Below are positions 22,756 to 42,891 of a DNA stretch of 64,000 nt, piece by piece. Position numbers and translations under genes: made by a program. This DNA is from Gammaproteobacteria bacterium (GTDB lineage: Bacteria > Pseudomonadota > Gammaproteobacteria > GCA-001735895): the NCBI GenBank assembly GCA_029862125.1, contig JAOTXY010000010.1, forward strand, positions 41 to 64,040, given 5' to 3'. The notes under the pieces are model-generated. The model was not told the origin of the DNA. It did no database searches and saw only the letters and a list, made by a program, of their open reading frames with translations. How positions within the stretch are numbered: the first letter of the stretch is position 1; each line of letters begins with the position of its first letter.

Positions 22756-23622
22756 ATGCAGCATATTAACTGGGACAATCTGCGTTACGTCCTGATGGTC
22801 GCGAACAAGGGATCCGTGGCCGCGGCGGCGCGTGAACTTGAGGTTAACCGCACTACGGTATTGCGTCGTATCGATAAATTCCAGGAAAACCTGAATTGCC
22901 GCATCTTTGATCGGGGCAGGGCGGGCTATGTTTTGACTCCGGAGGCGGAGAAAATGATCAATGCCGCGCGCGAGGTAGAGGACACGCTGTTCACCATGCA
23001 GCGCCAGATCGCCGGGCATGAGTTGAAACTTGAAGGTGAATTGCGGGTAACGACGACCGATTCCTTCATGTTATCGGTGCTGGGCCCGCATCTTGCCAGC
23101 TTCAGAGAAAAACACCCGCACATCGTCGTCGATTTACTGGTCACCAATAGCCTCCTTGATCTTAACCGACGCGATGCGGACGTTGCGATACGGCCAACCG
23201 GGCATCCAGATTCCAGCCTGGTCTCGAAACGGCTATGCGATGTTGAGTTTGGGGTATATGCGTCTGTTGAGTATCTTGAGTCAACCACGCCGGGTAATAT
23301 TATCGATGGCCGCTGGATAGGTCTTGTCGATAGCCTGGGTACAACACCCATTGGTAGCTGGTTCGATGAGGCCATCGATAAGTCCAGAATTTGCATGCGC
23401 TGTGATTCCTTTGTCGCAATCCGAATTGCCGCGGAAGCAGGCATCGGACTCGCGCTATTACCCCGCTTCCTGGGCGATGCCTCCCAGGTCTTGAACCGGG
23501 TGGAATTTCCGACCGCGAAGCTGACCACGGGTTTATGGATTTTGACGCATCCTGACCTGGTACGTTCTGCCCGGGTCCACGCGTTCATCGATCACTTCAG
23601 CGAAGCGCTCGGTTCACCCTGA
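22756..23622 (+). CDS. LysR family transcriptional regulator
   Basis: N-terminal HTH LRYVLMVANKGSVAAAARELEVNRTTVLRRI starting at ATG 22756. LysR substrate-binding-domain length. The listed ORF start at 22672 adds a non-homologous leader. Confidence 0.85.
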   Translation: MQHINWDNLRYVLMVANKGSVAAAARELEVNRTTVLRRIDKFQENLNCRIFDRGRAGYVLTPEAEKMINAAREVEDTLFTMQRQIAGHELKLEGELRVTTTDSFMLSVLGPHLASFREKHPHIVVDLLVTNSLLDLNRRDADVAIRPTGHPDSSLVSKRLCDVEFGVYASVEYLESTTPGNIIDGRWIGLVDSLGTTPIGSWFDEAIDKSRICMRCDSFVAIRIAAEAGIGLALLPRFLGDASQVLNRVEFPTAKLTTGLWILTHPDLVRSARVHAFIDHFSEALGSP

Positions 23623-24484
23623 TACGGGTTATGCCAATGCCACCCAGTATGGTGGCCAGGGCGACGAAATGTTGCCAGGATACCGGTTCTGATAATAGCC
23701 AGGCGCCGCATAAAAAAGCCACCACCGGGATCAGGTAGTTGATAGTCGACAGAAAGGTCGGCCCGGCGCGGTCAATGACAGCAAACAGGATGATGGTCGC
23801 AATGCCGGTGGGACCAATACCCAGCCAGATCACGGACATCATCGAATCCTGGCTGATGGCGTTGTTGTCGGGTGCCAGAACCAGCCAGATGGGCAGCATG
23901 ACCAGGCTTGCCATGATGACTACACCACAGGCACCCACCATCGGGCTGAAGCGCGGCAGGCGTTTGATCAGGATCGAATTGACGGCATAACAGGTGGCCG
24001 CGGTAAAAATTGCCAGGCCACTCCAGAATTCGCGGCCACCGCCTTCGAACACCGGGCCAAGCAGCAGGGTGACCCCGGTAATGCCAAGCGCGAAGCCAAT
24101 CAGCTTGTAACGATTGAGCTTTTCGTCGACGACAAAATAATGTGCAAACACCATGGTCAACAGCGGCATGATTGCCATGATCATGCCGGCGACGCCCGAG
24201 TCTACCTCTTGTTGCCCCCAGGAGATCAGAAAGAAAGGTAAAGCATTACCGACGATAGCCATTACCAGGAAACCCGCCCAGGTGCGCCAATCCCGGGGAA
24301 TTGAATGACCGCGCGCGTAGACCACCAGTGACAGCACCAATGCACCCAGCGCCAGGCGGTAAAAAACAACCGAGATCGGATCGACGGTGCTGACCGATAT
24401 CGCGGTAAACATGAAGGAAGTCCCCCACAGTGCGACCAGGCCCAGCAACAGCGTCCAGTTGATCAGGATTGTTCTTGAATTCAA
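23597..24484 (-). CDS. DMT superfamily transporter (EamA family)
   Basis: 295 aa, 10 TM helices, duplicated EamA-like halves. The convergent 26-bp 3' overlap with the LysR gene. Confidence 0.8.
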   Translation of the reverse strand: MNSRTILINWTLLLGLVALWGTSFMFTAISVSTVDPISVVFYRLALGALVLSLVVYARGHSIPRDWRTWAGFLVMAIVGNALPFFLISWGQQEVDSGVAGMIMAIMPLLTMVFAHYFVVDEKLNRYKLIGFALGITGVTLLLGPVFEGGGREFWSGLAIFTAATCYAVNSILIKRLPRFSPMVGACGVVIMASLVMLPIWLVLAPDNNAISQDSMMSVIWLGIGPTGIATIILFAVIDRAGPTFLSTINYLIPVVAFLCGAWLLSEPVSWQHFVALATILGGIGITRIRVNRALR

Positions 24485-24487
24485 AGC

Positions 24488-26440
24488 TTAGTCTTTCAGC
24501 TGGGGCAGGTTGCGATAGAGTTCTAACGCTTCTGGATTGGCAAGTGAGTGCACATTCTTGACCGCCCGGTCATGGACCACTTCGCGCACCGCGAGTTCGA
24601 CTATCTTGCCCGACTTGGTGCGCGGTATTTCGGATACCTGCACAATCCTGGCGGGCACATGACGGGGTGTGCATTTCGCTCGTACGGTCCCGCGGATCCT
24701 GTCTTGCAGCGCATCGTCGAGATCAATGCCAGGCTGTAAAACAACAAACAGTACAACGCGTACATCGTCCTCCCATTGCTGCCCGATGACGATGCTTTCG
24801 ACAATTTCATCCAGTTGTTCAACATGTCGGTAAATCTCGGCGGTGCCGATACGCACGCCCCCAGGATTCAGGGTTGCGTCGGAACGACCGAAAATAATGA
24901 TGCCATCGTGATCGGTCAGCATGACGTAGTCGCCATGATGCCAAACGTTATCAAAACGCGCGAAGTAGGCGTTGTGGTATTTTTCGCCGCTGTTATCGCC
25001 CCAGAAATAAACCGGTTGGCAGGGAAAAGTCTGGGTGCAGACCAGCTCGCCTTTCTTGTTGCGGACCGGATTACCATCGTCATCAAACACGTCAACAGCC
25101 ATGCCGAGCCCGCGGCACTGGACTTCACCCCGGTATATAGGCCTTAGTGGACAGCTGATGACAAAACAGGAAACGATGTCAGTGCCGCCTGATACCGAGG
25201 CGAGACAGAGATCCTGCTTGATGTTTTCGTAAACATAGTCAAAACTTTCCGGCGCGAGCACCGACCCGGTCGACGCAATTGTGCGCAAGCCCGACAGCTT
25301 AAACTTATTTAGTGGACGCAGCCCGGCCTTTTTCATCGCGTCGATGTATTTGGCCGAGGTACCAAAAATAGTCAGATCGATATCCTCGGCATAACGCCAC
25401 AGCACTTCACCATCCGGATAGAAAGGCGACCCGTCGTAAAGCACCAGCGCTGCTTTACTCGCGAGTGCGCTTACCAGCCAGTTCCACATCATCCAGCCCA
25501 GCGTGGTGAAATAAAATACGCGGTCCCCGGGATGGATATCGCAATGTAGCATCTGCTCCTTTAAATGCTGGATCAACGTACCGCCCACCCCGTGGGTGAT
25601 GCACTTGGGCTTACCGGTCGTACCCGAGGAATAGAGTACGTATAACGGGTCATTAAAATTGCGCGCCACGAATTCTATTTCGGTGACGGGGTTGGCGATG
25701 ATGTCGCTCCAGGCAACAGCCCCATGCTGGTTGCCGAACCCGGCAAAGTTGATCTGGACAACCTGTTCAAGGGTCGGTAACTGCGCACAGATGCTTTTAA
25801 CCTTGTTATTGATATCGTGGCGTTTACCGTTATAAAAGTATCCGTCCACGGTGAACAGAAACCTCGGTTCGGTCTGGCCGAAGCGGTCGACGACGCTGTC
25901 CTCGCCGAAGTCGGGTGAAGTTGATGTCCACACCGCACCGAGGCTGGTAGCCGCAAGCATCGCGACCACGGCTTCGGGCATATTGGGCAGGTAGGCAGCG
26001 ACGCGATCGCCGGGTTTAAGTCCATTCATTTTAAGCCAGTCGGAAACGCTTGCGACCTGGTCGTAAAGTTCACGGTAAGTCAGCGAGTAGTCGACCTGGT
26101 CCTCGGCGCGAAAGTAAATCGCGATTTCGTCATTCTTTTTGCGCAACAGGTTTTCGGCAAAATTGAGTGTTGCATCGGGAAACCATTGCGCTTTTTCGAT
26201 ATCTTCGCCATCGATCAGGATGCGTTCACCCTTGTCTCCGATAATTTCGAAAAAATCCCAGGCCTCCGACCAGAAGGTTTCCTTTTGATCAGTCGACCAT
26301 TGGTAGAGTGCGTCGTAGTCGTTGATCGAAAGGTCGTGGCGCTGATTCACCTGCGCAATAAAGCGCGTCATGTTGGCCGCGTCAATGCTGGCCTGGCTGG
26401 GCGTCCACAGGGGTTGTTGTTCTGTCATTTTTAGCGTCAT
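24488..26440 (-). CDS. Acetoacetate--CoA ligase (acetoacetyl-CoA synthetase)
   Basis: 650 aa AMP-forming ligase. N-terminus QPLWTPSQASI and YSSGTTGKPK AMP-binding motif. Overall layout typical of acetoacetyl-CoA synthetase. Confidence 0.85.
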   Translation of the reverse strand: MTLKMTEQQPLWTPSQASIDAANMTRFIAQVNQRHDLSINDYDALYQWSTDQKETFWSEAWDFFEIIGDKGERILIDGEDIEKAQWFPDATLNFAENLLRKKNDEIAIYFRAEDQVDYSLTYRELYDQVASVSDWLKMNGLKPGDRVAAYLPNMPEAVVAMLAATSLGAVWTSTSPDFGEDSVVDRFGQTEPRFLFTVDGYFYNGKRHDINNKVKSICAQLPTLEQVVQINFAGFGNQHGAVAWSDIIANPVTEIEFVARNFNDPLYVLYSSGTTGKPKCITHGVGGTLIQHLKEQMLHCDIHPGDRVFYFTTLGWMMWNWLVSALASKAALVLYDGSPFYPDGEVLWRYAEDIDLTIFGTSAKYIDAMKKAGLRPLNKFKLSGLRTIASTGSVLAPESFDYVYENIKQDLCLASVSGGTDIVSCFVISCPLRPIYRGEVQCRGLGMAVDVFDDDGNPVRNKKGELVCTQTFPCQPVYFWGDNSGEKYHNAYFARFDNVWHHGDYVMLTDHDGIIIFGRSDATLNPGGVRIGTAEIYRHVEQLDEIVESIVIGQQWEDDVRVVLFVVLQPGIDLDDALQDRIRGTVRAKCTPRHVPARIVQVSEIPRTKSGKIVELAVREVVHDRAVKNVHSLANPEALELYRNLPQLKD

Positions 26441-26670
26441 CCCGCACTATATTGCGTCATCCCCGCGAAAGCGGGGATCTCGTAACCTTGTCGCAATCTT
26501 AACAAGATTCCCCCCGGGCCGCGTAGGCTTACGCGGGAATGTCTGGTTAAGGGGTCGTACCCGCGTGAGCGAGGCCTCTTAGCGGACCACCGATTACAAG
26601 ATCCCGGATATGCGCTGTGCGCATTCCGGGATGACCCCCAGTCACCCGCCTACGGGCTGGTGACTGGAGG
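26441..26670. repeat. Structured, repeat-rich 230-bp intergenic element inside an operon (multiple hairpins, direct and inverted GCGTCATCCCGC repeats)
   Basis: Direct repeats agcgtcatcccgc (26437) and gcgtcatccccgc (26455) with an inverted copy ccgggatgacc (26626). Hairpins ccccgcgaaagcgggg (26461-26476), ccgcgtaggcttacgcgg (26518-26535), atcccggatatgcgctgtgcgcattccgggat (26601-26632) and gtcacccgcctacgggctggtgac (26641-26664). Confidence 0.5.
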
Positions 26671-27453
26671 TCACTTTCCTTTCCACACCGGATCGCGTTT
26701 TTCGGCGAACGCCTTGAAGCCTTCCATGCCGTCTTCACTGCCATAGAGGGTATCGACAGTCTCAAGCTGGCGCTTGGTAATCCGGTTCATCGTATCCTGG
26801 AACTTCATCGCCTCGGCTTCACGCGCGACTTCCTTGATCGATGCAAACACCAGCGGTGGTCCGGCGGCCAGTTCGAACGCAACCTCCCAGACTCGGTCCA
26901 TTAACTCGTCCGTCGGCAGAACCTCGTTTACCAGGCCCCAACGCAAGGCTTCGGCGCTATCCATCCAGCGGCCGCGATAGAGCATTTCCATCGCCACGTG
27001 GTAGGGAATGCGCTTCGGTAGTTTAATCGTTGCGGCGTCAGCCAGTGTGCCGGCCTTGATCTCGGGTAGCGCGAAACTCGAATGTTCGGAGGCGTAAATC
27101 AGGTCCGCTGACAACATGAGTTCAAAGCCCCCACCGACCGCCATACCGTTGACCGCGGCAATGACGGGTTTATTAAGACCGCGCAATTCCTGCAGCCCAG
27201 CAAATCCGCCAACGCCGTAGTCGCCATCAACCGCGTCGCCATCCGCGGCGGCCTTTAAATCCCAACCGGCAGAAAAGAATTTATCGCCCGCGGTCTGGAC
27301 AATGGCAACGCGCAACTCGGGGTCGTCACGGAATTCCCTGAACGTCTCGCCCATCAGTCGGCTGGTATGGAGATCGATAGCATTGGCCTTGGGTCGATCT
27401 AGCGTGACTTCGAGAACCCCGCCTTCTCTGCGGGTAGTGATTACATCAGTCAT
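26671..27453 (-). CDS. Enoyl-CoA hydratase/isomerase (crotonase) family protein
   Basis: 260 aa. Crotonase-fold motifs FSAGWDLK and AAVNGMAVGGGFELMLSADLIYA. Confidence 0.85.
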   Translation of the reverse strand: MTDVITTRREGGVLEVTLDRPKANAIDLHTSRLMGETFREFRDDPELRVAIVQTAGDKFFSAGWDLKAAADGDAVDGDYGVGGFAGLQELRGLNKPVIAAVNGMAVGGGFELMLSADLIYASEHSSFALPEIKAGTLADAATIKLPKRIPYHVAMEMLYRGRWMDSAEALRWGLVNEVLPTDELMDRVWEVAFELAAGPPLVFASIKEVAREAEAMKFQDTMNRITKRQLETVDTLYGSEDGMEGFKAFAEKRDPVWKGK

Positions 27454-29508
27454 TTATTTCTGCTCCTCTAGTACGATAAGTGCATCGGCCGCGAAAACAC
27501 CTTCTCCCTGCGCGCCGATCATTAATGGATTAACGTCAAGTTCGATCAGTGAACCCGAATTCGAGATCGCGAATTGCTGGATAGCAACAATGGCATCGAC
27601 GGTAGCTTCGATGTCAGCGGCGGGCTTGCCACGATAGCCATCTAGCAACGATGCGGATTTAAGGCCCGCGACTGTAGCTTCGATTTCATCGCGCCGTGCC
27701 GGGATGATAAGAGTTTTACTATCCTTCAGGATTTCGACCAGGATGCCGCCGCTGCCGATGGTCAAAATCAGGCCATACTGGGGATCGCGAGTTACCCCGA
27801 CAATCAATTCGGCCACGGCCGGTTTCATGGTTTCCAGGTAAAGCTGGTCGCTGAGTTTGAATAATTCGTTGGCCGATCGACTGACGTCTGCCTCGTTAAC
27901 CAGGTTCAATCGTACCGCGTTATGCTCGGTTTTATGGGCGATGCCGAGCGCTTTCATTACCAGCGGATAACCCAGGCTCGGTGCAAGCTCCAGTGCGGCT
28001 TCATTCGAATCGACGCATTGACCTTCCGGTATCGGTACGCCCACCGCGTTTAAACGCTGCTTGGCGCTTGCTTCATCGAGGGTTATCCCGGTGCTGCAAG
28101 TCGGGGCAAGCTGTAATACCGGTTCAGGTCGTTCCTGATTCCAGGCGGCGCCGATGTCGGCGGCGATTCCGGTTGCCTGCAGCGCCTCGTCTATGCCGTA
28201 GAAACTGACGATGCCACGCCGACTGAAATTCTCTGTATATTCCTCGGGGATATTCTCCGGCATACCGACGACGAACGCGCCCTTGGCCCGGTTATGCTTG
28301 AGTGCGGCTTCGAAGGCGTCGACCGCAATGTGCCATTCCCAGTCTTCGCAGCGCGCATGATGCGGGAAATCGAGGATCAGGTAATTCATATCGAAGTCCA
28401 GGGCCGTCATCCCGCGATAGGTGGCTTCCATCACTTCCCGGTTACCCCAACTGTAGGTCTGGTAGTCGAGAGGGTTGGCAACCGTGACCAGGGGGCCCAG
28501 CGCGGCTTCGATCGGTGCCTTTTGCGAGTCTTCGAGATCGGGGAAGTAAACCTTGTGCCGTGCGGCGGTGTCGGCAATGATGCTGGCTTCACCGCCGGAG
28601 CAGCTCATCGACGATACCCGGTAGCCCTCGAGCGGTCCGTGCTGATGCAGTAGTTTCAGCGTCTCCAGGAACACCGGGATCGATTCGGCCTGGCCGAATC
28701 CGTTACGGCGTAAAAATTCGCTCGTCACCTCGTGCGAACCCACCAGCGATGCAGTGTGCGACATTGCGGCAGCTTGTGACTGTTCGCTCTTGCCGACCTT
28801 GAACACGACGATCGGTTTGTTTAAAGCGCGCGATTTTTGCGCCAGTTTTTCCATCGCTACAATTGAATCGAAACCTTCGACGTACATGCCGAGCGCGGTA
28901 ACGCGAGGATCATCGAGCAACGACAGTGCCAGCTCTGATATGCCGACCACCGCCTGGTTGCCAACCGTAACAACGTAGGTCAGTGGCAGCCCACGCTTTT
29001 GCATGGTGAAGTTAATCGCGATGTTGGATGACTGGGCGATGATCGCAACCCCGGTGCTGTCGGCTTTTAGACGCTTGCCGCCCTGCTGATCGGGCCACAG
29101 CAGCGCGCCGTCGGCGTAATTGATAAAGCCGTAACAGTTCGGGCCGAGAATCGGCATGTCGCCCGCTGCCTCGATCAATGCGGCCTGCAACTCACCCCCG
29201 GTCTTATCGGCTTCGCGAAAGCCCGAGGCATAGCATACCGCGCCTCCGCAGCCGCGTTCCCGCAACGCCCTGACCACATCGACGCTAGCGTGCCGATTAA
29301 CTCCGACAAAGGCGGCATCGGGCACACCGGGCAGGTCCTCGACGCGCTTGAACGCGGGGATTCCGCGCACCTCGGTTTTCTCGGGATGTACCGGCCAGAT
29401 CTCGCCCTGGTAGCCCATCAGTTGGCATTGTTCGACCACGCGGCTCGCTTGCAGGCCGCCGATCGCGGTGATCGACCCGGGTCGCAGCAGTCGTTCCAGG
29501 CCGGACAT
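27454..29508 (-). CDS. Acyl-CoA synthetase, NDP(ADP)-forming (acetate--CoA ligase family; CoA-binding + succinyl-CoA-synthetase-like + ATP-grasp domains)
   Basis: 684 aa. N-terminal CoA-binding motif SITAIGG. Central flavodoxin-like domain. C-terminal ATP-grasp domain. No intergenic gap to the flanking ECH and ACAD genes. Confidence 0.75.
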   Translation of the reverse strand: MSGLERLLRPGSITAIGGLQASRVVEQCQLMGYQGEIWPVHPEKTEVRGIPAFKRVEDLPGVPDAAFVGVNRHASVDVVRALRERGCGGAVCYASGFREADKTGGELQAALIEAAGDMPILGPNCYGFINYADGALLWPDQQGGKRLKADSTGVAIIAQSSNIAINFTMQKRGLPLTYVVTVGNQAVVGISELALSLLDDPRVTALGMYVEGFDSIVAMEKLAQKSRALNKPIVVFKVGKSEQSQAAAMSHTASLVGSHEVTSEFLRRNGFGQAESIPVFLETLKLLHQHGPLEGYRVSSMSCSGGEASIIADTAARHKVYFPDLEDSQKAPIEAALGPLVTVANPLDYQTYSWGNREVMEATYRGMTALDFDMNYLILDFPHHARCEDWEWHIAVDAFEAALKHNRAKGAFVVGMPENIPEEYTENFSRRGIVSFYGIDEALQATGIAADIGAAWNQERPEPVLQLAPTCSTGITLDEASAKQRLNAVGVPIPEGQCVDSNEAALELAPSLGYPLVMKALGIAHKTEHNAVRLNLVNEADVSRSANELFKLSDQLYLETMKPAVAELIVGVTRDPQYGLILTIGSGGILVEILKDSKTLIIPARRDEIEATVAGLKSASLLDGYRGKPAADIEATVDAIVAIQQFAISNSGSLIELDVNPLMIGAQGEGVFAADALIVLEEQK

Positions 29509-30680
29509 CAGCCACCCAGCGGGCGCAGCAATTCGCGCGATATGATATGGCGCTGGATTTCAGAGGTGCCATCCCAGATGCGTTCGACCCGCGCATCGCG
29601 CCAGAACCGTTCCAGCGGTAGTTCATCCATCAGGCCCATGCCGCCGAAGATCTGGATCGCTTCATCGGTTACGCGCGCCAGCATCTCGGTGGCGAACACC
29701 TTGGCGCTTGCAATTTCGCGATTGGCATCGAGTCCCTGGTCGAGACGCCAGGCCGCAGACAGCGTGAGCCAGTCGGCGGCGTCGATGTCGGTGATCATGT
29801 CGGCGAGTTTGAAAGACACGCCCTGGAATTTGCCGATCTGCTGACCGAACTGTTTACGCTCGACCGCGTAGGGCAGGGCATATTCGAAGGCACGTCGAGC
29901 GCGCCCGACACTGGTTGCGGCGACGGTTAAACGGGTCGCGTACAACCATTCGTTCATGACTTCGAAGCCGCCGTGTAATTCACCCAGAATCTGACCTTCG
30001 GGCAAACGGCAATTATCGAAGTTCAGGATACAGTTTTTGTAACCGCGATGGCTGACCGAGTTATATCCCGGCCTGATTTCGAATCCCGGCGTGCCGCGGT
30101 CTACCAGGAAGCAGGTGATTTTCTTCTTGATGCCGCGAGGTGTTTCTTCTTCCCCGGTGGCGATAAAGACGATGACGAAGTCAGCAATATCGGCGTGACT
30201 GATAAAATGCTTGCTGCCATTCACAACCCAGTCACTGCCATCCTGCCGGGCACTGCATTTCATGCCACGAACATCGGAACCGGCTCCCGGTTCGGTCATG
30301 GCTAGCGCATCAAATTTCTCACCTTTAACCGCGGGGACCAGGTATTTTTCGCGCTGCTCTTCGGTGCAGGCCTGCAGTATGCCGGAAGGACGCCCGAAGA
30401 ATACCGCGAGTGCGTTCGAGGCACGACCGAGTTCACGTTCGAGCAGGGTGAAGTCAAGGTGGCTTAAGCCACCGCCACCAAATTCCTCGGAGATATTGGC
30501 GGCGAAGTAGCCCGCCTCGATACATTTGTCCCGAATTTCGTGGCCGATTTCGATTGGCACTTCGCCGCTGCGCTCGACTTCGGCTTCATGCGGGTAAATT
30601 TCGTTTTCGACGAAGCTTCTGACCGTGTCGACGATCATTTCCTGTTCAAAACTGAGTCCGAAATGCATGTTATTCTCCAA
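29508..30680 (-). CDS. Acyl-CoA dehydrogenase
   Basis: 390 aa ACAD with conserved blocks (ALAMTEPGAGSD, QIFGGMGLMDELPLERFWRDARV). Confidence 0.85.
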   Translation of the reverse strand: MENNMHFGLSFEQEMIVDTVRSFVENEIYPHEAEVERSGEVPIEIGHEIRDKCIEAGYFAANISEEFGGGGLSHLDFTLLERELGRASNALAVFFGRPSGILQACTEEQREKYLVPAVKGEKFDALAMTEPGAGSDVRGMKCSARQDGSDWVVNGSKHFISHADIADFVIVFIATGEEETPRGIKKKITCFLVDRGTPGFEIRPGYNSVSHRGYKNCILNFDNCRLPEGQILGELHGGFEVMNEWLYATRLTVAATSVGRARRAFEYALPYAVERKQFGQQIGKFQGVSFKLADMITDIDAADWLTLSAAWRLDQGLDANREIASAKVFATEMLARVTDEAIQIFGGMGLMDELPLERFWRDARVERIWDGTSEIQRHIISRELLRPLGG

Positions 30681-30682
30681 AT

Positions 30683-31678
30683 TTATTCGTCATTAGCGGC
30701 TCCCAGCAGTTGCTGCTCGTAGCGTGCCAGTGTTTTGCCCGCACCCCAGTTATTGCCCTTTAGCGCCTGCAGGATCGCGATCAGGTTGCTGTCGCGTACG
30801 CGCTCAAGATCGCGCGGGGTCAGGCCAGCGGCCTGCTGATCGCACTGATCGCCGACCTCATTGACAAACTCATCGGTCAGTTCGGGTACGTCCATGAGTT
30901 TGGTCCAGGGCCACTTCAGGCACGGACCGAACATCGCCAGCATCGCACGCATGCCGCCTTCGCCACCAGCCAGGTGGAAAGTCTGCATGGTACCCATCTG
31001 CGCCCAGCGCAGGCCGGGGCCGTAAGCGATCGCGGCGTCGATTTCCTCGGCGGTCGCGACCTTGTCGTGCAGTAGCCAAAGCGCTTCGCGCCACAAGGCT
31101 TCCTGCAGGCGATCCGACAGAAAACCCTCGATTTCGACGCGACAGTGCAGCGGATGCATGCCGATGGCGGCGAAGAAATGCTTGCCCCATTCGATATATT
31201 TCGAATTAGTTTTCTCACCGGATACCAGTTCAACCAGTGGTAGCAGGTAGACCGGGTTGAACGGATGGGCAACCATCAGGCGCTCGGGATGTGTCATTTC
31301 GGACTGTAGTTCGGTCGGCATGATGCCCGAGGTCGACGATGTGATGACCGCGTCACTCGCCGCCGTGGTTTCGATTTCAGCGTAAACCGCGCGCTTGATG
31401 TCCGGGCGTTCAGGCACCGACTCGATGATCAGTTGCGCGCCTTTGGCCGCCTCTGCCGCGGTGGCGTGCCAGCTGATAGTACCCTTGTTCGTGGAACGAA
31501 CGCTGGTCAGGTTGGCAAATGCCTGTTCAGCATTGGCGAGCACTGTATTTAGCTTGTTTTCGGCGTCGGGCGCCGGATCAAAGACGCGCACGTCGATTCC
31601 GTTTTCGACCAGGCGCGCGCTCCAGCCACCACCGATAACGCCACCGCCGATGATGGCGGCTGTCTTTACCTCAATCAT
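30683..31678 (-). CDS. 3-hydroxyacyl-CoA dehydrogenase family protein, L-carnitine dehydrogenase-like
   Basis: NAD-binding AIIGGGVIGGGWSARL. 331 aa. Position between a BKACE gene and an ACAD and opposite a GlxA/CdhR-like regulator matches carnitine dehydrogenase operons. Confidence 0.65.
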   Translation of the reverse strand: MIEVKTAAIIGGGVIGGGWSARLVENGIDVRVFDPAPDAENKLNTVLANAEQAFANLTSVRSTNKGTISWHATAAEAAKGAQLIIESVPERPDIKRAVYAEIETTAASDAVITSSTSGIMPTELQSEMTHPERLMVAHPFNPVYLLPLVELVSGEKTNSKYIEWGKHFFAAIGMHPLHCRVEIEGFLSDRLQEALWREALWLLHDKVATAEEIDAAIAYGPGLRWAQMGTMQTFHLAGGEGGMRAMLAMFGPCLKWPWTKLMDVPELTDEFVNEVGDQCDQQAAGLTPRDLERVRDSNLIAILQALKGNNWGAGKTLARYEQQLLGAANDE

Positions 31679-31690
31679 GTTTTTACTCCC

Positions 31691-32608
31691 TTATTTTGAG
31701 ACCGGCGGACGTTTTTGCAGTTGCATTTTTTCGCGCACCTCGGTCGGAGTCATCAGGGTTGCACCCATGTTGGTAACAATGGTTGCCGCCATTTCCACGA
31801 GTTGTGCGTTAGTCGCAAGCTCGCCTTTTCTGAGCCAAAGGTTGTCCTCGAGGCCGACACGCACATTGCCACCGGCAAGTACCGCGGCGGCGGCGTAGGG
31901 CATTTCGTGGCGGCCGATCGAAAACGCCGAAAAGGTCCAGTTGTCCGGGGTATTGTTGACCATCGACATGAAGGTGTTCAAGTCATCCGGAGCACCCCAC
32001 GGAATACCCATACACATCTGGATCATGACCGGGTCCTGGATGATGCCTTCTTCGACCAGCTGCTTGGCAAACCACAGGTGGCCGGTTTCGAAGACTTCGA
32101 TTTCGGGACGCACGCCGAGATCGGTCATCATTTGACCCATCGCGCGCAGCATACCGGGGGTATTGGTCATGACGTAGTCAGCCTCGGCGAAATTCATTGT
32201 GCCGCAGTCGAGGGTGCAGATTTCAGGCAGGCATTCGGCGACATGCGCAACACGTTCAGTAGCGCCCGCCATATCGGTTCCAGCCTCGTTCAGGGGGAGC
32301 GGATTCTCCGGGTCGCCAAACACCAGGTCACCGCCCATGCCGGCAGTGAAGTTGACCACGACATCGGTTTCAGAATCACGGATACGATCGATAACCTCAC
32401 GGTAGAGTTCTACCCGACGACTGGGTTTGCCGGTTTCAGGTTCGCGCACGTGGCAATGGACAACGGCGGCGCCTGCCTTGGCGGCATCGATCGCGCTGCT
32501 GGCGATTTGTTCGGGCGAGCGCGGCACGTGGGGAGAACGATCCTGTGAGCTGCCGGAACCGGTAACAGCACAGGTAATGAAAGGATTCAGATTGGCGCTT
32601 AAAGGCAT
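31691..32608 (-). CDS. 3-keto-5-aminohexanoate cleavage enzyme family (BKACE/DUF849) beta-keto acid cleavage enzyme, dehydrocarnitine-cleavage-like
   Basis: N-terminal ITCAVTGSG. HCHVREPETGKPS and the FTAGMGG Zn/substrate motifs are typical of BKACE. Length is 305 aa. Confidence 0.75.
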   Translation of the reverse strand: MPLSANLNPFITCAVTGSGSSQDRSPHVPRSPEQIASSAIDAAKAGAAVVHCHVREPETGKPSRRVELYREVIDRIRDSETDVVVNFTAGMGGDLVFGDPENPLPLNEAGTDMAGATERVAHVAECLPEICTLDCGTMNFAEADYVMTNTPGMLRAMGQMMTDLGVRPEIEVFETGHLWFAKQLVEEGIIQDPVMIQMCMGIPWGAPDDLNTFMSMVNNTPDNWTFSAFSIGRHEMPYAAAAVLAGGNVRVGLEDNLWLRKGELATNAQLVEMAATIVTNMGATLMTPTEVREKMQLQKRPPVSK

Positions 32609-32698
32609 GGCACACCTCCATTAATAGAACGCGCCATCATGCCATGGATTGCGGGATTGTGATTGCATTAATGCGCAAAATATTTAACAATTTACGCA

Positions 32699-33676
32699 AT
32701 GAGTATCTTCAAACCGAGCGATCAAAAACTCCGGGTAACGCTGCTGGTATTGCCCGATTCGTCGATGATGTCGCTGGCATCGGCGCTCGACACCATGCGT
32801 GCCGCAAACCGTATCGCAAGCAGTGAACTATTTGAATGGAAAATCATAACCCTGAACGGAAAACCGGCGCGCCTGACCTGCGATATATCGATCGAACCCG
32901 ACGCCACGCTTGATGAACATTCGCACGGGGATGTGCTGATCGTCATTGCCAGTTTCCATCAGCAGCAACATGCGGGACCTGCCCATTTAAAGTTGATCAA
33001 GCGGGTGGCTCGAAATTTCTCGATGGTTGGTGGCATAGAGGCCGGCAGCTGGATCCTGGCACGCAGCGGCTTACTGGAACGTAAATCGGCAACTACTCAC
33101 TGGGAAGACCTGGAGGAATTTGGCACTCGCTTTCCCGCGGTCAACTTGAAAGCGGATCGTTTCGTTATCGATGGCCCGGTATTTACCACCGGTGGTGCGT
33201 CACCAACCTTCGACTTCATGCTGTACCTGATCCGCAAGCGCTACGGTTATCCGCTCGCGATCGAAGTTTCCAGCGCCTTCATTTATGACGGCGTGCACAG
33301 CGCTACGGATACCCAGCCACTGGTGTCACTCGGCATGCTGGAAAATAACGAGCCCCGGGTCGCCGCGGCGATACACCTGATGGAACAGCATATCGATGAC
33401 ACCCTGACGATAGCCCAGGTGGCACGGCAGATCGATTTATCGGTGCGTATGCTCGAATACCTTTTCAGGCAGACACTGAATCTTTCCCCGGCTGCTTACT
33501 ATCGTCGTCTGAGGTTGCAAACCGCGCGCCGCATGGTGGTCGATACACGGCTCAAGTTGCAGGAAATCGCCATTCGCACCGGCTTTAACTCGTTGTCTTC
33601 ATTTTCGCGCCTGTTTAGCCAGTACTACCAGCAATCCCCCGGGGAATGTCGCCGCCTGGCGCAAAGTACAATTTGA
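32699..33676 (+). CDS. GlxA-family (DJ-1/PfpI + AraC HTH) transcriptional regulator, CdhR-like
   Basis: 325 aa. N-terminal class-I glutamine-amidotransferase-like domain. C-terminal AraC-type HTH (AQVARQIDLSVRMLEYLFRQ...IAIRTGFNSLSSFSRLF). Divergently transcribed from the BKACE and carnitine-dehydrogenase-like genes. Confidence 0.75.
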   Translation: MSIFKPSDQKLRVTLLVLPDSSMMSLASALDTMRAANRIASSELFEWKIITLNGKPARLTCDISIEPDATLDEHSHGDVLIVIASFHQQQHAGPAHLKLIKRVARNFSMVGGIEAGSWILARSGLLERKSATTHWEDLEEFGTRFPAVNLKADRFVIDGPVFTTGGASPTFDFMLYLIRKRYGYPLAIEVSSAFIYDGVHSATDTQPLVSLGMLENNEPRVAAAIHLMEQHIDDTLTIAQVARQIDLSVRMLEYLFRQTLNLSPAAYYRRLRLQTARRMVVDTRLKLQEIAIRTGFNSLSSFSRLFSQYYQQSPGECRRLAQSTI

Positions 33677-33827: not shown

Positions 33828-34577
33828 ATGAAAATACTGGTATGTGTGAAACGCGTGCTAGACCCCCAGGTCAAGGCACGTGTCAAGGCGGATGAATCGG
33901 GTGTCGATCTGGCGAACGCCAAGATGACCATGAATCCCTTTTGTGAAAATGCCCTCGAAGAGGCGCTGCGCCTGCGCGAGGCCGGCATTGGCGAGGAAAT
34001 TATCGTGGCCTCGGTCGGCGGTGGTAAAACCGAGGAAACCCTGCGCCATGGACTCGCCATGGGCGCCGATCGCGCGATCCAGGTGGTAACCGAGGAAACG
34101 CTGGAGCCGCTCGCCATCGCCAAGGTGCTGAAGCAGGTCGCCGAGCAGGAAAGCGTTGGCCTTGTGCTCGCCGGCAAACAGGCCATCGACGACGACTCCA
34201 ACCAGACCGCACAAATGCTGTCGGCGCTGCTGGGCTGGTCGCAGGCGACCTATTGCTCGGAAATCAAGATCGAGGGTGATAAGGCGACCGTAACCCGTGA
34301 GGTCGACGCCGGTCTCGAGACTATCGAGGTGAAGATGCCGGCCGTTATGAGTGCCGACCTGCGCCTCAACGAGCCGCGTTACGTCAAGCTACCCGACGTT
34401 ATGAAAGCCAAGCGCAAGCCGATGGATAAAATCGAGCTCGATAGCCTGGGGCTCGATACCGCCAATCGCCTGACGACCTTGAAAGTCGAAGAACCGGAAG
34501 GCCGCGCCGCCGGCGTGATTGTAAACAGCGTCAGTGAACTGGTCGAAAAACTGCGCAACGAAGCGAAGGTGATTTAG
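33828..34577 (+). CDS. etfB: Electron transfer flavoprotein subunit beta
   Basis: [13 protein letters not shown]-terminus. 249 aa. Followed 3 nt later by etfA. Confidence 0.9.
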
Positions 34578-34579: not shown

Positions 34580-35509
34580 ATGGCAAATCTGGTAATCGTC
34601 GAACACGATAACAACGAAGTCGCCGCGGCAACCCTGCATGCGGTGACTGCTGCGCAGCAAATTGGTGGTGACATCGACCTGCTGGTCGCAGGCGAAAATT
34701 GCGGTGCGGTTGCTGAAGAGGCCGCCAAAATTGCTGGCGTTAGCAGCGTCAAGGTGGCTGATGATGCGAAGTTCGGTCATCACCTCGCGGAAAACCTGGC
34801 GACCCTGATCGTCGAAGTTGCCGCGGGTTACAGTCACGTACTGGCCTCGGCCACCACCTTCGGCAAGAACGTCATGCCGCACGCTGCGGCCTTACTCGAC
34901 AAGGCGCAGATTTCCGAAATTGTCGAAGTCAAGTCAGCCGATACCTTCGTGCGCCCGATCTACGCAGGTAACGCGCTGGCGACGGTACAGTCTTCGGATT
35001 CGATCAAGATAATTACCGTGCGCACCATCAAATTCGAAGCCGCGGCAGCCGAAGGGGGTTCCGCGAACGTCGAAGCGATCAGCGGCGGTACCGATACTGG
35101 CCTGTCGAGCTGGGTGTCGCAGGCGGTTTCCAGCAACGACCAGGTCGATCTGACTTCGGCCAAGATCGTCATTTCCGGCGGTCGCGGCATGCAGTCCGGC
35201 GATAACTTTAGCATGTTGCACTCGGTCGCCGACAAGCTCGGCGCAGCGGTTGGCGCATCGCGCGCCGCGGTCGATTCCGGCTTTGTACCGAACGAATTCC
35301 AGGTTGGCCAGACCGGCAAGGTCATCGCGCCGGATTTGTACATCGCGGTCGGTATCTCCGGTGCGATCCAGCACCTCGCTGGGATGAAGGAGAGCAAGGT
35401 TATCGTCGCCATCAACAACGACAGCGAAGCGCCGATCTTCCAGGTCGCGGATTATGGCCTGGTCGCGGATCTTTTCGAAGCGGTACCCGAGCTCGACGCC
35501 GCGCTGTAA
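34580..35509 (+). CDS. etfA: Electron transfer flavoprotein subunit alpha
   Basis: 309 aa. C-terminal FAD-binding block IAVGISGAIQHLAGMKESKVIVAINND. Confidence 0.9.
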   Translation: MANLVIVEHDNNEVAAATLHAVTAAQQIGGDIDLLVAGENCGAVAEEAAKIAGVSSVKVADDAKFGHHLAENLATLIVEVAAGYSHVLASATTFGKNVMPHAAALLDKAQISEIVEVKSADTFVRPIYAGNALATVQSSDSIKIITVRTIKFEAAAAEGGSANVEAISGGTDTGLSSWVSQAVSSNDQVDLTSAKIVISGGRGMQSGDNFSMLHSVADKLGAAVGASRAAVDSGFVPNEFQVGQTGKVIAPDLYIAVGISGAIQHLAGMKESKVIVAINNDSEAPIFQVADYGLVADLFEAVPELDAAL

Positions 35510-35520
35510 ACGGCACACGT

Positions 35521-35589
35521 CATGCCCGCGAAAGCGGGCATCTAGTAGAAACACAAAACCCGCCGGATTCAATCCGGCGGGTTTTTTTG
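35521..35589 (+). terminator. Rho-independent terminator after etfA (tandem hairpins, second followed by T7 run)
   Basis: atgcccgc-gaaa-gcgggcat hairpin (35522-35541). Then cccgccgga-ttcaa-tccggcggg followed by ttttttt (35559-35588). Confidence 0.75.
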
Positions 35590-35629: not shown

Positions 35630-37237
35630 TCAGGCGAACCACCACCGTTCGGCATTCTTCATGCCGTCCAGTTCCCAGTTGTTGCCGATCTGCTCGGGAA
35701 GGCCGAGTTTGTCGTTCACCGCCATCACGTCACTGAGAAACAGCGGTATTACAGCGCCCCCGTCGTTGTGCACGATTTGCTGCATTTCGACATAGATTTC
35801 GCGCCGTTTCTCCGCATTCAGTTCGGCACGGCCCTGGATCAGCAACTTGTTGAATTGCTCGTTCTTCCAGTAAGTTTCGTTCCATTTGGCATCTGCGGAG
35901 TAAACCTGGGAAAACATCCAGTTTTCGGTGGGCCGGCCGCTCCAGTAGGAGCCACACCAGGGCTTTTTCAACCACACGTCGGCCCAGTAGCCGTCATTGG
36001 CTTCGCGTTTAATGTCGATATTGATCCCGGCGGGCTTGGCCGATTCGCGCATTAGCTGCCCGGCGTCCACCGCACCGGCGAAGGCCGTATCCGCGGCATG
36101 GAATTCCACCGACAGGTTCTCCATTTTGGCCTGCTTCAAGTGCCACTTCGCCTTGTCGGGATCGTATCCCCGCTGCGGCAGCTCTTCGGTGGTCGCGCGA
36201 TACACGTTGGCCGGGCCGATCGGATTGTCGTTGCCGAGTTCACCGTAGCCAAATGCGATCTTGTCGAGCCACTCTTTGCGCTGGATTATCAACTTGAGCG
36301 CCATGCGAACGTGATTATTGTCATAGGGCGCCAGATCCGTGCGCATCGGCAGCGTGATCTGCTTGTTACCCGTGGTGGCGATAACTTTCACGCCTGGCAG
36401 CTTGGCAAACCGACTGGCAGTTTTCAAATCCACTTTCTGGATGCAATCCACCGTATCCGTTCGCAGGGCAGTGGTGCGCGCCCCCGGGTCTTCGAGCTGC
36501 AGTGACTCGATTTCATCGAAATGCGCTTTACCTTCTTTCCAGTAGTTGGGATTGCGCTTGGTAAAAGTTCGAATACCGGGTTCATGGTCCACCAGGCTGT
36601 AGCCGCCCGTGCCGATGCCGGATTGCCAGTCGATGCTACCGTCGCCGTTGGAGGGGCAGATCAGGATGTGATAGTCGCTGAGGATGAACGGAAAGTCGGC
36701 ATCGCCGCCACTGAGTCCTACTACCACTGTATTCGCCCCATCCGCCTTGACCGAGTCAACGCCGGTGAGGATGCCGGCCGCGCCCGATGTCGAACCTTCA
36801 CCGAGGTGATGCTGCAACGAATCTACCACGTCCTGCGAATTCAGGGTCTTACCATTGTGGAATTCCACACCCTTGCGAATTTTGAAAACCCACTGGGTGG
36901 CATCGGCGTTGGCCTCCCAGCTTTCGGCCAGTTCTCCGACCAGTTCACCGCTGGCAGAGACTTCGGTAAGGTTGTTACGCAACTGGCCGAATTGCACGTT
37001 GATCATGTAGGAGTCCAGGATCTGGCCCGGGTCCAGTACGTCACTGGTCGCGCCACCGGTGAGCCCCTGCCTGAGCTTGCCACCTTTCTTTGGAGCGGCC
37101 AGTGCCGCTTCGCTGTATAGCATGGGTGCCATCGCTCCCGCGCCCAGTGCCATCGCCGCGGTCAGGAATTTACGGCGGCTCAGGCCGTTTTCCGTAACCA
37201 GTCGTTGCAGAAATTTGATTTCGTCGTCTTGTTTCAT
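35630..37237 (-). CDS. ABC transporter substrate-binding protein, family 5 (peptide/opine/nickel type), Tat signal
   Basis: Start at MKQDDEIKF with RBS GGAGAGGA 6 nt upstream. Tat motif SRRKFLTAAMALGAGAMA. Mature domain of about 500 aa typical of SBP_bac_5. No cognate permease in the window. Confidence 0.8.
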   Translation of the reverse strand: MKQDDEIKFLQRLVTENGLSRRKFLTAAMALGAGAMAPMLYSEAALAAPKKGGKLRQGLTGGATSDVLDPGQILDSYMINVQFGQLRNNLTEVSASGELVGELAESWEANADATQWVFKIRKGVEFHNGKTLNSQDVVDSLQHHLGEGSTSGAAGILTGVDSVKADGANTVVVGLSGGDADFPFILSDYHILICPSNGDGSIDWQSGIGTGGYSLVDHEPGIRTFTKRNPNYWKEGKAHFDEIESLQLEDPGARTTALRTDTVDCIQKVDLKTASRFAKLPGVKVIATTGNKQITLPMRTDLAPYDNNHVRMALKLIIQRKEWLDKIAFGYGELGNDNPIGPANVYRATTEELPQRGYDPDKAKWHLKQAKMENLSVEFHAADTAFAGAVDAGQLMRESAKPAGINIDIKREANDGYWADVWLKKPWCGSYWSGRPTENWMFSQVYSADAKWNETYWKNEQFNKLLIQGRAELNAEKRREIYVEMQQIVHNDGGAVIPLFLSDVMAVNDKLGLPEQIGNNWELDGMKNAERWWFA

Positions 37238-37453
37238 ATGTCCTCTCCGGTTGGGGTCTTTTTTTGCGAAACAGGCCGTTAACGGCAATCTGATTCGCTT
37301 TGTCCCGCGATTATAACCCCGAAACCATCGCAGATCGAAACATTATATCTTTCAATAACGACGAGATTGCGCAATGGCAACAGAAATTAAGGTTCAAAAA
37401 AGTGACACAGGGATTGTATTTCAATCCTCCCGTCTTTCGTTCCAGGACAGGAG

Positions 37454-40556: not shown

Positions 40557-40706
40557 CCATGTACTTGACCCTCATCAAGGTTGCCCGCTGATTTTGAAGA
40601 TTTAATAGTAGATTAATCTAACAGAAGATTAGTCGCTACAAGTTTGTCATCTGAAACAGACGAATTTAAACCAAATAACATCAGAAAATTTAAGAGGAGC
40701 ATCATC

Positions 40707-41024
40707 ATGAGCCGTTCACCTAGAATCGCAATAAGCGGGATTGTCGCCCTGTTAAGCGGGGGCCTCGGTCTCAGCCAGAGTTATGCCGCCGATGCGGTGC
40801 CGCGAGCCGAGTTACTGGCGTCCATGTGTATCACCTGTCACGGCGCTAATGGTAAAGGCGCCAAGCCTATGCCTGGGATTAACGGCGAGGAACCCGCCGA
40901 TTTTATCGACCTGATGCAGGCCTTCGCCAACGGTGAAGAGTCCACCAGTATCATGGATCGCCATGCCCAGGGTTATACCGAGGCCGAGCTCAAGCTGCTC
41001 GCCGAATATTTCAGCAAACAATAA
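40707..41024 (+). CDS. Monoheme c-type cytochrome, flavocytochrome c sulfide dehydrogenase cytochrome subunit-like
   Basis: ATG 40707 with AGGAG RBS. Signal peptide. Single CITCH heme motif. 105 aa. Stop 16 nt before the FccB gene. Confidence 0.7.
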   Translation: MSRSPRIAISGIVALLSGGLGLSQSYAADAVPRAELLASMCITCHGANGKGAKPMPGINGEEPADFIDLMQAFANGEESTSIMDRHAQGYTEAELKLLAEYFSKQ

Positions 41025-41039
41025 TAGAGGAGAAAGACA

Positions 41040-42323
41040 ATGAAAGCATATGATCGCAGAGACTTTCTCAAGGTAATCGGAGCCGCGGGCGCAGTAACCG
41101 GGTTGGGTAGCCTGGTGTGGCCAATGGAAGCCCTGGCCGCAGCCAGCGGAAAAGTGGTTGTCGTTGGTGGCGGTTTCGGTGGCGCGACCTGCGCCCGGTA
41201 TCTGAAACGCTGGGGACCCCAACTCGATGTCACCCTGGTTGAGCGCGATACCAGCTATATCACCTGCCCGTTTTCCAACGAGGTGCTCTCGGGTAATCTT
41301 GACATCAGCAAGATTACCCACGACTACGGCAATATCCACGCTCAGGGTATCAATGTGGTGCACGACGAGGTCACCGCTATCGATGCCGGTGGAAAATCGA
41401 TCAACCTCAAGTATGGCGGTTCGATGAAATTCGATAAATTGGTTGTATCACCGGGTATCGCGTTCAAGTGGGGTGCGATTGAAAATGACCAGGCGGCGGT
41501 GCAACGGGCAATGCCGCACTCATGGAAAGCCGGCGAACAGACGCTATTGCTGAGAAAACAGTTGCAGGCTATGCGCGACGGCGGCACCGTCATCATCGTG
41601 CCACCGAAGAAACCGTTTCGCTGTCCACCCGGACCTTATGAACGCGCCAGCCTGATTGCACATTATCTCAAGTGGAACAAGCCGAAGTCCAAAATCCTGA
41701 TTGTCGATGCCAACCCGACCCATTCCAAGCAGGCTGCGTTTCACGAAGCCTGGAACAAGGAATACGGTAACATGATCGAATGGATCAAGGATACCGACGG
41801 TGGCGTCATTACCAGAGCGGATCCGGGCAACATGACCCTGCGCAATGATTTTGGCGACGAATACAAGGGTGATGTAATCAACCTGATCCCCTATCAAAAA
41901 GCGGGCGAACTGGTTGAAACCGCCGGCCTGACCAACAAGGATGGCTGGTGTACCGTCGATATGGGCACTTTTGAATCGGCAAAGGCCAGGGATGTACATA
42001 TCATCGGTGACGCCTGCGTCGCCGGTGCCATGCCAAAATCTGGCCACTCGGCGGCTTCGCAGGCGAAGAATTGTGCTGCTGCGATCGTTTCCATGCTCGC
42101 CGGAGATACACCACCCGAACCGACCTATGCCAACACCTGTTACAGCCTGATCGGACCCAAGTACGGTATTTCGGTGGCCGCAGTTTACCGCCTTAAAGAC
42201 GGGGTCATCGTCAAGGTTTCCGGTGGAGTCAGTAAAGTAGGCAACAAGGATCGGGTACATGAGAACGAAGCCAAGTATGCCCGCGGCTGGTACAAGTCAA
42301 TCACCTCCGACGTGTTCGGTTGA
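41040..42323 (+). CDS. fccB: Flavocytochrome c sulfide dehydrogenase flavoprotein subunit
   Basis: Tat signal RRDFLKVIGAAGAVTGLGS. FAD motif VVVVGGGFGGATCARYL. FCSD-type motifs RCPPGPYERASLIAHYLK and CVAGAMPKSGHSAASQAKNCA. Length is 427 aa. Confidence 0.85.
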   Translation: MKAYDRRDFLKVIGAAGAVTGLGSLVWPMEALAAASGKVVVVGGGFGGATCARYLKRWGPQLDVTLVERDTSYITCPFSNEVLSGNLDISKITHDYGNIHAQGINVVHDEVTAIDAGGKSINLKYGGSMKFDKLVVSPGIAFKWGAIENDQAAVQRAMPHSWKAGEQTLLLRKQLQAMRDGGTVIIVPPKKPFRCPPGPYERASLIAHYLKWNKPKSKILIVDANPTHSKQAAFHEAWNKEYGNMIEWIKDTDGGVITRADPGNMTLRNDFGDEYKGDVINLIPYQKAGELVETAGLTNKDGWCTVDMGTFESAKARDVHIIGDACVAGAMPKSGHSAASQAKNCAAAIVSMLAGDTPPEPTYANTCYSLIGPKYGISVAAVYRLKDGVIVKVSGGVSKVGNKDRVHENEAKYARGWYKSITSDVFG

Positions 42324-42348
42324 GCCGATCGATATCTGGTAATGAGAT

Positions 42349-42378: not shown

Positions 42379-42394
42379 GGAAGTTAATGGACCG

Positions 42395-42862: not shown

Positions 42863-42891
42863 TATATCGATTTTGCTGAGGAATTTGCACT

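Follow-up and report, generated by a model that had tools for sequence, protein, structure and literature searches.

A likely gamma-butyrobetaine and carnitine catabolic operon of the S. meliloti bco/cdh type in an uncultured gammaproteobacterium

A five-gene operon lies at 26671-32608 on the minus strand of a 64 kb stretch of contig JAOTXY010000010.1, the whole of which we call the window. Judging from predicted proteins and gene order, it is likely that this operon serves the aerobic catabolism of gamma-butyrobetaine (GBB), crotonobetaine and L-carnitine in an uncultured marine-sediment gammaproteobacterium and is of the type of the Sinorhizobium meliloti bco/cdh cluster. That cluster has already been characterised (Bazire et al. 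2019, J Bacteriol 201:e00772-18), and the pathway reading is a rediscovery. An earlier note on this DNA had proposed a GBB/carnitine cluster with CoA-level steps, and this core proposal agrees with a published, collinear rhizobial pathway, whose enzymes are encoded in the same order and are 52-77% identical to those of the window. Two points are absent from that note: the thioesterase domain missing from the dehydrogenase, and the membership of the ligase in the 'DddX-like' family.

Genes were assigned from an open reading frame (ORF) map of the window together with Pfam and NCBIfam profile scans, and all the genes that had been named before are present. In order of transcription, the operon encodes a BKACE (DUF849) protein (31691-32608; PF05853, 336 bits), a 331-aa protein of the 3-hydroxyacyl-CoA dehydrogenase (HADH) type that resembles carnitine dehydrogenase (CDH; 30683-31678; NF005716 'carnitine 3-dehydrogenase', 481 bits), a BcoC-like acyl-CoA dehydrogenase (ACAD; 29508-30680; Pfam ACAD N, M and C domains), a 684-aa BcoA/B-like ADP/NDP-forming acyl-CoA synthetase with fused alpha and beta parts (27454-29508; CoA_binding_2, Succ_CoA_lig and ATP-grasp_5), and a BcoD/CaiD-like crotonase (26671-27453; ECH_1, 206 bits). 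A GlxA/AraC regulator with DJ-1_PfpI and HTH_18 domains is encoded divergently on the plus strand (32699-33676), and a spacer of 90 bp (32609-32698) separates it from the BKACE gene. The ACAD, ligase and crotonase genes nearly abut, as had been described, while the exact distances, given earlier as zero to three nucleotides, are corrected: 12 nt between BKACE and CDH, a 1-nt overlap (a gap of -1) between ACAD and ligase, and 0 nt between ligase and crotonase. From CDH to ACAD the gap is 2 nt by the longest ORF and 14 nt if the ACAD starts at ATG 30668. The latter is the more likely start, as GGAG lies 7 nt upstream of it and the resulting protein, predicted at 386 aa, has the length seen in relatives.

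A tblastn search of plasmids with the window ligase led to a Rhizobium etli locus on pRetIE4771e. There the RefSeq annotation places a GlxA gene divergent from genes for a 3-keto-5-aminohexanoate cleavage protein (BKACE), carnitine 3-dehydrogenase, acyl-CoA dehydrogenase, an acetate-CoA ligase family protein and carnitinyl-CoA dehydratase; ABC transporter genes come after these. The window proteins are 74% (BKACE), 57% (CDH, over only the first 306 of the 496 residues in R. etli), 77% (ACAD), 52% (ligase), 73% (crotonase, the RefSeq 'carnitinyl-CoA dehydratase') and 41% (regulator) identical to their R. etli counterparts. On the chromosome of Ensifer sp. R-19 (L066), the corresponding identities are 73% for BKACE, 53% for CDH, 80% for ACAD, 49-50% for the ligase and 71% for the crotonase. 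Reportedly (Bazire et al. 2019), five S. meliloti enzymes carry out seven steps from GBB to glycine betaine; we take these to be the products of SM2011_c01637-c01641, namely BKACE, bifunctional CDH/thioesterase, BcoC, BcoA/B and BcoD. SMc01639 is annotated as an acyl-CoA dehydrogenase, which is consistent with that order. As the order BKACE, CDH, ACAD, ligase, crotonase also holds on the Ensifer chromosome, we infer by synteny that the ADP-forming ligase gene corresponds to BcoA/B. With S. meliloti BcoAB, the product of a single gene, GBB-CoA was made in the presence of ATP, Mg and CoA (bioRxiv 10.1101/2021.01.25.428109).

The arrangement is widespread. A scan with the ligase alignment, taking one genome per GTDB species, gave at least 587 loci with relatives, of which 80 were kept; all locus counts given here rest on those 80. 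The five genes are collinear in 69 loci from Alpha- and Gammaproteobacteria, and in all but one of these (68) a GlxA gene is divergent from them. The recurrence of one gene order in so many independent loci puts the arrangement far from chance. The carriers include Rhizobium, Ensifer, Shinella, Neorhizobium, Mesorhizobium, Phyllobacterium, Aminobacter, Kiloniellaceae, Rhodobacterales, Thiotrichaceae/Thiolinea and the uncultured marine clade of Gammaproteobacteria to which the window belongs. An exact-sequence search with the window ligase matched no contig. Among the kept loci, the nearest genome is the metagenome-assembled genome 'Gammaproteobacteria bacterium MAG_Ve_Sed_03' (L004), whose ligase is 95% identical and whose synteny with the window runs from etfBA through an acetoacetate-CoA ligase gene to EamA and LysR genes. 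An ADP-forming ligase in this role had been thought unusual. We find the opposite: since the same type of ligase, BcoA/B-like by synteny, is the standard partner in the 69 collinear loci, it is the rule for this pathway.

In the pathway that we propose, the ligase would activate GBB (GBB + ATP + CoA to GBB-CoA) or crotonobetaine, the ACAD would oxidise GBB-CoA to crotonobetainyl-CoA, with electrons probably passing to an electron transfer flavoprotein (ETF), and the crotonase would hydrate crotonobetainyl-CoA to L-carnitinyl-CoA. Free L-carnitine would be released from this thioester, a step to which no window enzyme is matched, and would be oxidised by the short NAD-dependent dehydrogenase to 3-dehydrocarnitine, from which, with acetyl-CoA, BKACE would produce betainyl-CoA and acetoacetate. 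A second thioester release, again matched to no enzyme of the window, would convert betainyl-CoA to glycine betaine, and in the window's clade the adjacent acetoacetate-CoA ligase would re-activate the acetoacetate. The divergent GlxA-type regulator probably turns the operon on upon carnitine or GBB. Each enzymatic step is predicted by homology, and the inducer is likewise a prediction; gene content, gene order and orthology to the rhizobial cluster are what the sequence shows directly. For the dehydrogenase, the profile scores are 481 bits on the long-form carnitine 3-dehydrogenase model, of which the match covers only profile positions 3-332 of 495, against 321 bits on the Pseudomonas-type model and at most 210 on generic HADH models.

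Several observations weigh against this reading. The best NCBIfam match of the crotonase is indeed crotonobetainyl-CoA hydratase (CaiD), but its score of 320 bits lies under the cut-off of 500, and the ACAD scores 188 bits on the CaiA model, under a cut-off of 540. The link to S. meliloti itself goes through synteny in Ensifer and Rhizobium, and not through direct sequence comparison. The operon has no obvious linked transporter for carnitine or GBB, be it a BCCT protein or a full ABC system. Those members of the ligase family that were assayed cleave dimethylsulfoniopropionate (DMSP), and for that reason homology alone does not settle the physiological substrate of the ligase. Finally, the route as drawn from the S. 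meliloti model is incomplete in the window. The rhizobial CDH is about 496 aa long and carries a C-terminal thioesterase domain, which in the S. meliloti model frees both carnitine and glycine betaine from their CoA esters, whereas the CDH of the window stops at the inter-domain linker. Pfam scans of all substantial ORFs reveal no thioesterase in the 64 kb, and tblastn searches of the window with the R. etli thioesterase domain and with a PaaI thioesterase gave no match. A hidden Markov model (HMM) built from 26 fused thioesterase domains was run on six-frame ORFs of the window and of all loci; in the window it finds nothing, even at E up to 1, and in the clade relatives no thioesterase is detectable within 10 kb of the operon. 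Because the CDH is short and no thioesterase is detectable in the window, two of the seven steps, the release of carnitine from carnitinyl-CoA and that of glycine betaine from betainyl-CoA, have no assigned enzyme here.

The same gap recurs outside the window. Among the 69 collinear loci, 24 have the fused form of CDH and two have a separate thioesterase gene, while in the remaining 43 the CDH is short (329-394 aa) and no thioesterase lies within 10 kb. The CDH tree has at least four places where short forms neighbour long ones, and the CDHs of the window's clade sit beside a 489-aa Limibaculum enzyme with 73% identity; the thioesterase domain has therefore been repeatedly lost or gained. These patterns could be explained if thioesterase-less operons used a modified route, in which the HADH-like enzyme oxidises L-carnitinyl-CoA directly, so that no free carnitine would be formed, or in which a reversible ligase frees carnitine and glycine betaine with recovery of ATP. 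The second version is attractive: ADP-forming acyl-CoA synthetases work near equilibrium and run toward ATP formation in archaea and protists. However, BKACE requires a free beta-keto acid, which argues against a route that proceeds entirely at the CoA level, and S. meliloti retains its thioesterase beside the same type of ligase. We therefore consider a modified route quite unlikely; the simplest alternative for filling the thioester-release steps is an unlinked thioesterase elsewhere in the genome.

Two further features of the CDH region were observed in relatives. In Mesorhizobium-type operons (L013, 7026-7655, and about 20 others), an additional gene for a 209-aa HD-domain/MIOX-like protein is found between BKACE and the short CDH; this protein could be related to the thioester-release steps or to some other substrate. 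In L003 (7739-8734) and L045, which are about 90% identical to the window in BKACE and ACAD but 57-60% identical in CDH, the CDHs cluster with Thiolinea on the tree, and the CDH gene seems to have been swapped within an otherwise conserved operon.

The ligase calls for a closer comparison with DMSP lyases. The earlier note had allowed for a substrate other than carnitine, and DMSP cleavage by members of the ligase family is documented both in vitro and in vivo (PMC13543886), so that this part of its alternative is retained as a rival, one to which we attach a low probability. The closest PDB entry to the window ligase is the DMSP lyase DddX (7CM9; phmmer, 190 bits). Wang et al. (2026) described a 'DddX-like' enzyme of roseobacters, one example of which is Neptunicoccus cionae WP_188673365.1; it converts DMSP, ATP and CoA to dimethyl sulfide (DMS) and acryloyl-CoA with a Km of 1.43 mM and a kcat of 0.42 per s, and for which the authors found no catalytic base (PMC13543886). 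Knockout of the N. cionae gene removed about 50% of DMS production, and release of DMS from DMSP was shown for homologues from Leisingera, Sulfitobacter and Roseovarius, including WP_024092211.1 of Leisingera methylohalidivorans (PMC13543886). This last protein, which is P0184 among the relatives collected here, is 46-48% identical to the window ligase over its full length and 58% identical to the Ensifer and R. etli ligases. Its gene stands in the order ACAD, Rdx, ligase, crotonase, with a GlxA gene pointing away from them, and the flanking ACAD and crotonase are 65% and 75% identical to those of the window.

The residues of interest are shared as well. Mutation of His251, Thr351, Trp354 and Trp392 made the 'DddX-like' enzyme less active (PMC13543886), and the window ligase has the same residue at each of these four positions, as do 25 of 28 other aligned family members, the rhizobial ones included. 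The phosphohistidine is conserved relative to DddX, with His251 of the window ligase opposite DddX His292 in the HMMER alignment. In that alignment, Gln350/Thr351 stand opposite the cation-pi residue Trp391 of DddX, and Asp389 opposite Glu432, a correspondence that differs from the published structural mapping; by the HMMER placement DddX Trp391 is not matched, and Asp389 is not conserved in the ligase family. The clade to which Wang et al. apply their label is defined by its similarity to the enzyme of N. cionae H-12, with coverage above 90% and identity above 60% (PMC13543886), and the window ligase probably lies below that identity, judged from the Leisingera enzyme as a proxy.

The ligase, ACAD and crotonase could in principle be mainly a DMSP module, with the ligase acting as a DMSP lyase, the crotonase (perhaps with ACAD and ETF) detoxifying acryloyl-CoA, and BKACE and CDH forming a separate, co-transcribed carnitine module. 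Besides the resemblance to DddX and to the assayed Leisingera enzyme and the four retained residues, the loci of Leisingera, Phaeobacter and R. pomeroyi, in which the trio occurs with an inserted Rdx or DJ-1/PfpI gene but in the absence of BKACE and CDH (L087, 10001-12028; L084; L081), would fit this idea, as would a marine, sulfur-oxidising host. Yet the ACAD has no role in the conversion of DMSP to acryloyl-CoA and nevertheless accompanies the ligase without exception, the crotonase resembles CaiD, and in 69 of the 80 loci CDH, BKACE and the trio make up a single operon with a regulator of the GbdR/CdhR type. The weak kinetics and the lack of a catalytic base (PMC13543886) fit a side reaction of a GBB ligase, and the identity of the window ligase, probably under the threshold by the Leisingera proxy, also counts against the DMSP module. 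The words butyrobetaine, carnitine and Bco are absent from the text of Wang et al., who report no test of GBB (PMC13543886), and in the searchable literature we found no paper linking butyrobetaine with ADP-forming ligases; the BcoA/B and 'DddX-like' literatures appear to be unconnected. We consider a principal role in DMSP cleavage distinctly improbable, while a DMSP side activity of the window ligase is, from its family membership, quite plausible.

That the operon is a generic short-chain fatty-acid or lysine-type beta-keto acid cluster unconnected with quaternary amines is extremely unlikely: all five enzymes do belong to broad beta-oxidation-type superfamilies, and the top NCBIfam match of BKACE is the lysine-fermentation enzyme Kce (239 bits, under a cut-off of 382), but the CDH far prefers the carnitine 3-dehydrogenase model to generic ones, the crotonase has crotonobetainyl-CoA hydratase as its best match, the regulator belongs to the GbdR/CdhR type, and the whole cluster is orthologous to and collinear with the rhizobial carnitine cluster.

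Returning to GBB and carnitine as the substrates, a single speculative extension would bring the missing thioesterase and the DMSP activity together. One reversible ligase might activate GBB, run backward on L-carnitinyl-CoA and betainyl-CoA with recovery of ATP, and cleave DMSP as a side reaction. This would explain both the use of an ADP-forming over an AMP-forming ligase and the repeated loss of the thioesterase domain, although we regard it as rather unlikely. If it were true, many of the marine 'dddX-like' genes, which are abundant, would in fact encode ligases for butyrobetaine. The ligase family now bears two experimental labels, butyrobetaine-CoA synthetase (2019) and 'DddX-like' DMSP lyase (2026), and the latter served to argue that genes for DMS production are highly abundant in Tara Oceans data (PMC13543886); which substrate is the physiological one therefore bears on how marine 'dddX-like' gene counts are read. 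Likewise, as 43 of the 69 sampled operon copies are without the thioesterase demanded by the S. meliloti model, two steps of the pathway have no assigned enzyme in many bacteria. For the host itself, the operon means that GBB and carnitine, common osmolytes derived from animals and algae, can probably be used as sources of carbon and of glycine betaine.

The regulator is related to GbdR/CdhR and is presumed to activate the operon; its top match is GbdR, at 231 bits, under a cut-off of 480. The spacer between the regulator and BKACE genes is 88-90 bp long in all six clade members that we aligned, and in this alignment it contains conserved TTGCG(C/T)AA repeats and a AATCCATGACATGAT block, which are candidate operator or promoter elements on the strength of their conservation. 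Scans of 22-38 kb for consensus promoters and terminators gave counts at or under the shuffle expectation and were not used; as the promoter scan gave nothing above chance, a control function of the spacer is suggested by conservation and position only.

Downstream of the operon, on the same strand and 230 bp past the crotonase gene, is a gene for an AMP-forming acetoacetate-CoA ligase (24488-26440), which scores 965 bits on NF002937 (cut-off 639) and 924 bits on TIGR01217 (cut-off 521). An acetoacetate-CoA ligase gene follows the operon in the four clade loci L004-L007 of the genome scan and lies nearby in L003, but is found in none of the 76 other loci; this clade-specific linkage fits the salvage of acetoacetate released by BKACE. 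In the 2.57-Mb relative L003 (17611-19553) it is called as two ORFs of 312 and 335 aa, apparently through a frameshift or an assembly error. An EamA/DMT transporter gene (23597-24484, minus strand; PF00892) lies directly past the acetoacetate-CoA ligase gene and is co-located with it in L003-L007; its membership of the system is tentative. The R. etli cluster also has EamA and LysR genes nearby, and we considered and rejected these as homologues of those in the window: there is no match for EamA, and LysR is 29% identical over 150 residues, which we attribute to coincidence. The 230-bp spacer between the crotonase and acetoacetate-CoA ligase genes (26441-26670) contains four hairpins. A REP-like palindrome (CCCGCTTTCGCGGG then ATGAC), for which the chance expectation is none, occurs at 26456-26476, past the crotonase gene, and again at 35519-35539, just past etfA.

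Beyond the regulator, on the plus strand, are etfB (33828-34577) and etfA (34580-35509), assigned by the Pfam ETF and ETF_alpha models. These had been proposed to supply the electron acceptor of the ACAD. The genes are indeed beside the regulator, and ETF is a plausible acceptor, but as they adjoin the cluster only in the two closest relatives, L004 and L005, they may be housekeeping ETF genes of general use. Past them, on the minus strand, an orphan family-5 ABC substrate-binding protein (SBP) is encoded at 35630-37288 (PF00496). It shares 43% identity with the SBP that R. etli encodes just past the rhizobial operon, a homologue is found within 10 kb in 41 of the 80 loci, and it is a possible uptake component; there are no permease genes nearby. 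A different kind of neighbour is seen on a plasmid of Sulfitobacter sp. W027 (L085, 11888-13743), where genes for a TauD/TfdA-family dioxygenase and a class II aldolase adjoin a complete long-CDH operon. As the TauD/TfdA family is that of the GBB hydroxylases, both routes from GBB to carnitine may coexist in this strain.

The earlier note had joined the operon to a dimethylglycine dehydrogenase (DMGDH)-like gene and to soxBDAG as a route to glycine. The genes are as it described them: the DMGDH-like gene (52381-55062) encodes DAO, FAO_M and GCV_T domains, and within the soxBDAG set (58009-63243) soxB (58009-59370) and soxA (59664-62672) pass their NCBIfam cut-offs, with soxG at 62665-63243. 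They lie 19-30 kb from the operon, with soxYZ, flavocytochrome-c sulfide dehydrogenase, cytochrome and rhodanese genes intervening, and the link accordingly amounts to co-occurrence within the 64 kb. A glycine betaine demethylase had been noted as not evident, and we too see no homologue of GbcAB or BHMT in the window. A 382-aa GcvT-like protein (12232-13380) was considered as DmdA or a glycine betaine demethylase and rejected: its best models are trimethylamine N-oxide (TMAO) demethylase and DmdA, both far under cut-off, the latter at 177 bits against 410. Its gene opens a plus-strand cluster (12232-17747) that also encodes two short-chain dehydrogenases/reductases (SDRs), an oxidase of the DAO family and a protein of 463 aa that resembles the N-terminal part of sarcosine oxidase alpha and has a BFD-like [2Fe-2S] domain. 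Possibly this cluster is a further oxidase system, for methylated amines or opines.

Elsewhere in the window, a set of sulfur-oxidation genes occupies 40644-52010. It includes flavocytochrome-c sulfide-dehydrogenase-like flavoproteins at 41040-42323 and 49942-51312 with cytochrome c partners, soxY (42395-42862), soxZ (42892-43206), a protein resembling thioredoxin, one with DUF302 and a rhodanese (48916-49833), a content that suggests a sulfur oxidiser as the host. At 6971-9823, upstream of malate dehydrogenase, lies a pair of DUF1800/DUF1501 genes (549 and 397 aa).

The operon was compared with several known systems, one of them DddX of Psychrobacter sp. D2 (7CM9; Li et al. 2021, PMC8163506). 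That enzyme shares with the window ligase the ADP-forming acyl-CoA synthetase superfamily and a substrate that is an onium carboxylate, but it is only distantly related, and its cluster contains a BCCT transporter and an aldehyde dehydrogenase. The roseobacter 'DddX-like' enzymes, reported to be about 23% identical to DddX, belong to the same family as the window ligase, with the same three-domain architecture and the four mutated residues, and the Leisingera gene has orthologues of the ACAD and crotonase of the window on its two sides and a GlxA regulator. They differ in that the roseobacter loci examined are without BKACE and CDH, and in that their published activity is DMSP cleavage and not GBB activation.

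The enterobacterial cai operon (CaiTABCDE) has in common with the proposed pathway the intermediates GBB-CoA, crotonobetainyl-CoA and carnitinyl-CoA, as well as a crotonase (CaiD) and an ACAD (CaiA), but it operates anaerobically in the reductive direction and uses the AMP-forming CaiC and the CoA-transferase CaiB. None of CaiB (CoA_transf_3), BCCT/CaiT or a second, CaiC-type AMP-binding ligase is found among the scanned window proteins. The cdhCAB/CdhR system of P. aeruginosa resembles the window in its BKACE, in a short CDH (about 321 aa there) and in a GbdR-like GlxA/AraC activator; it lacks the ligase, ACAD and crotonase trio that the window has, and so offers no entry for GBB. The third gene of that operon, cdhB, is presumably a thioesterase gene. 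The P. aeruginosa route runs from carnitine through 3-dehydrocarnitine, next through betainyl-CoA, and ends at glycine betaine (PMC12482172).

The closest counterpart is the S. meliloti bco/cdh cluster, whose SM2011_c01638 product both oxidises carnitine and turns betainyl-CoA into glycine betaine (PMC12482172). Relative to it, the window belongs to a gammaproteobacterial host, has a CDH of 331 aa in place of about 496 aa and without the thioesterase domain, and adds an acetoacetate-CoA ligase and an EamA transporter that are specific to its clade. Past the crotonase it has no ABC transporter operon, the orphan binding protein lying 8 kb away. Against these differences stand the same five enzymes in the same order, the divergent GlxA regulator and the same type of ADP-forming ligase, with identities over the five enzymes, measured on proxy loci, of 52-77% for R. 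etli and 49-80% for Ensifer sp. R-19.

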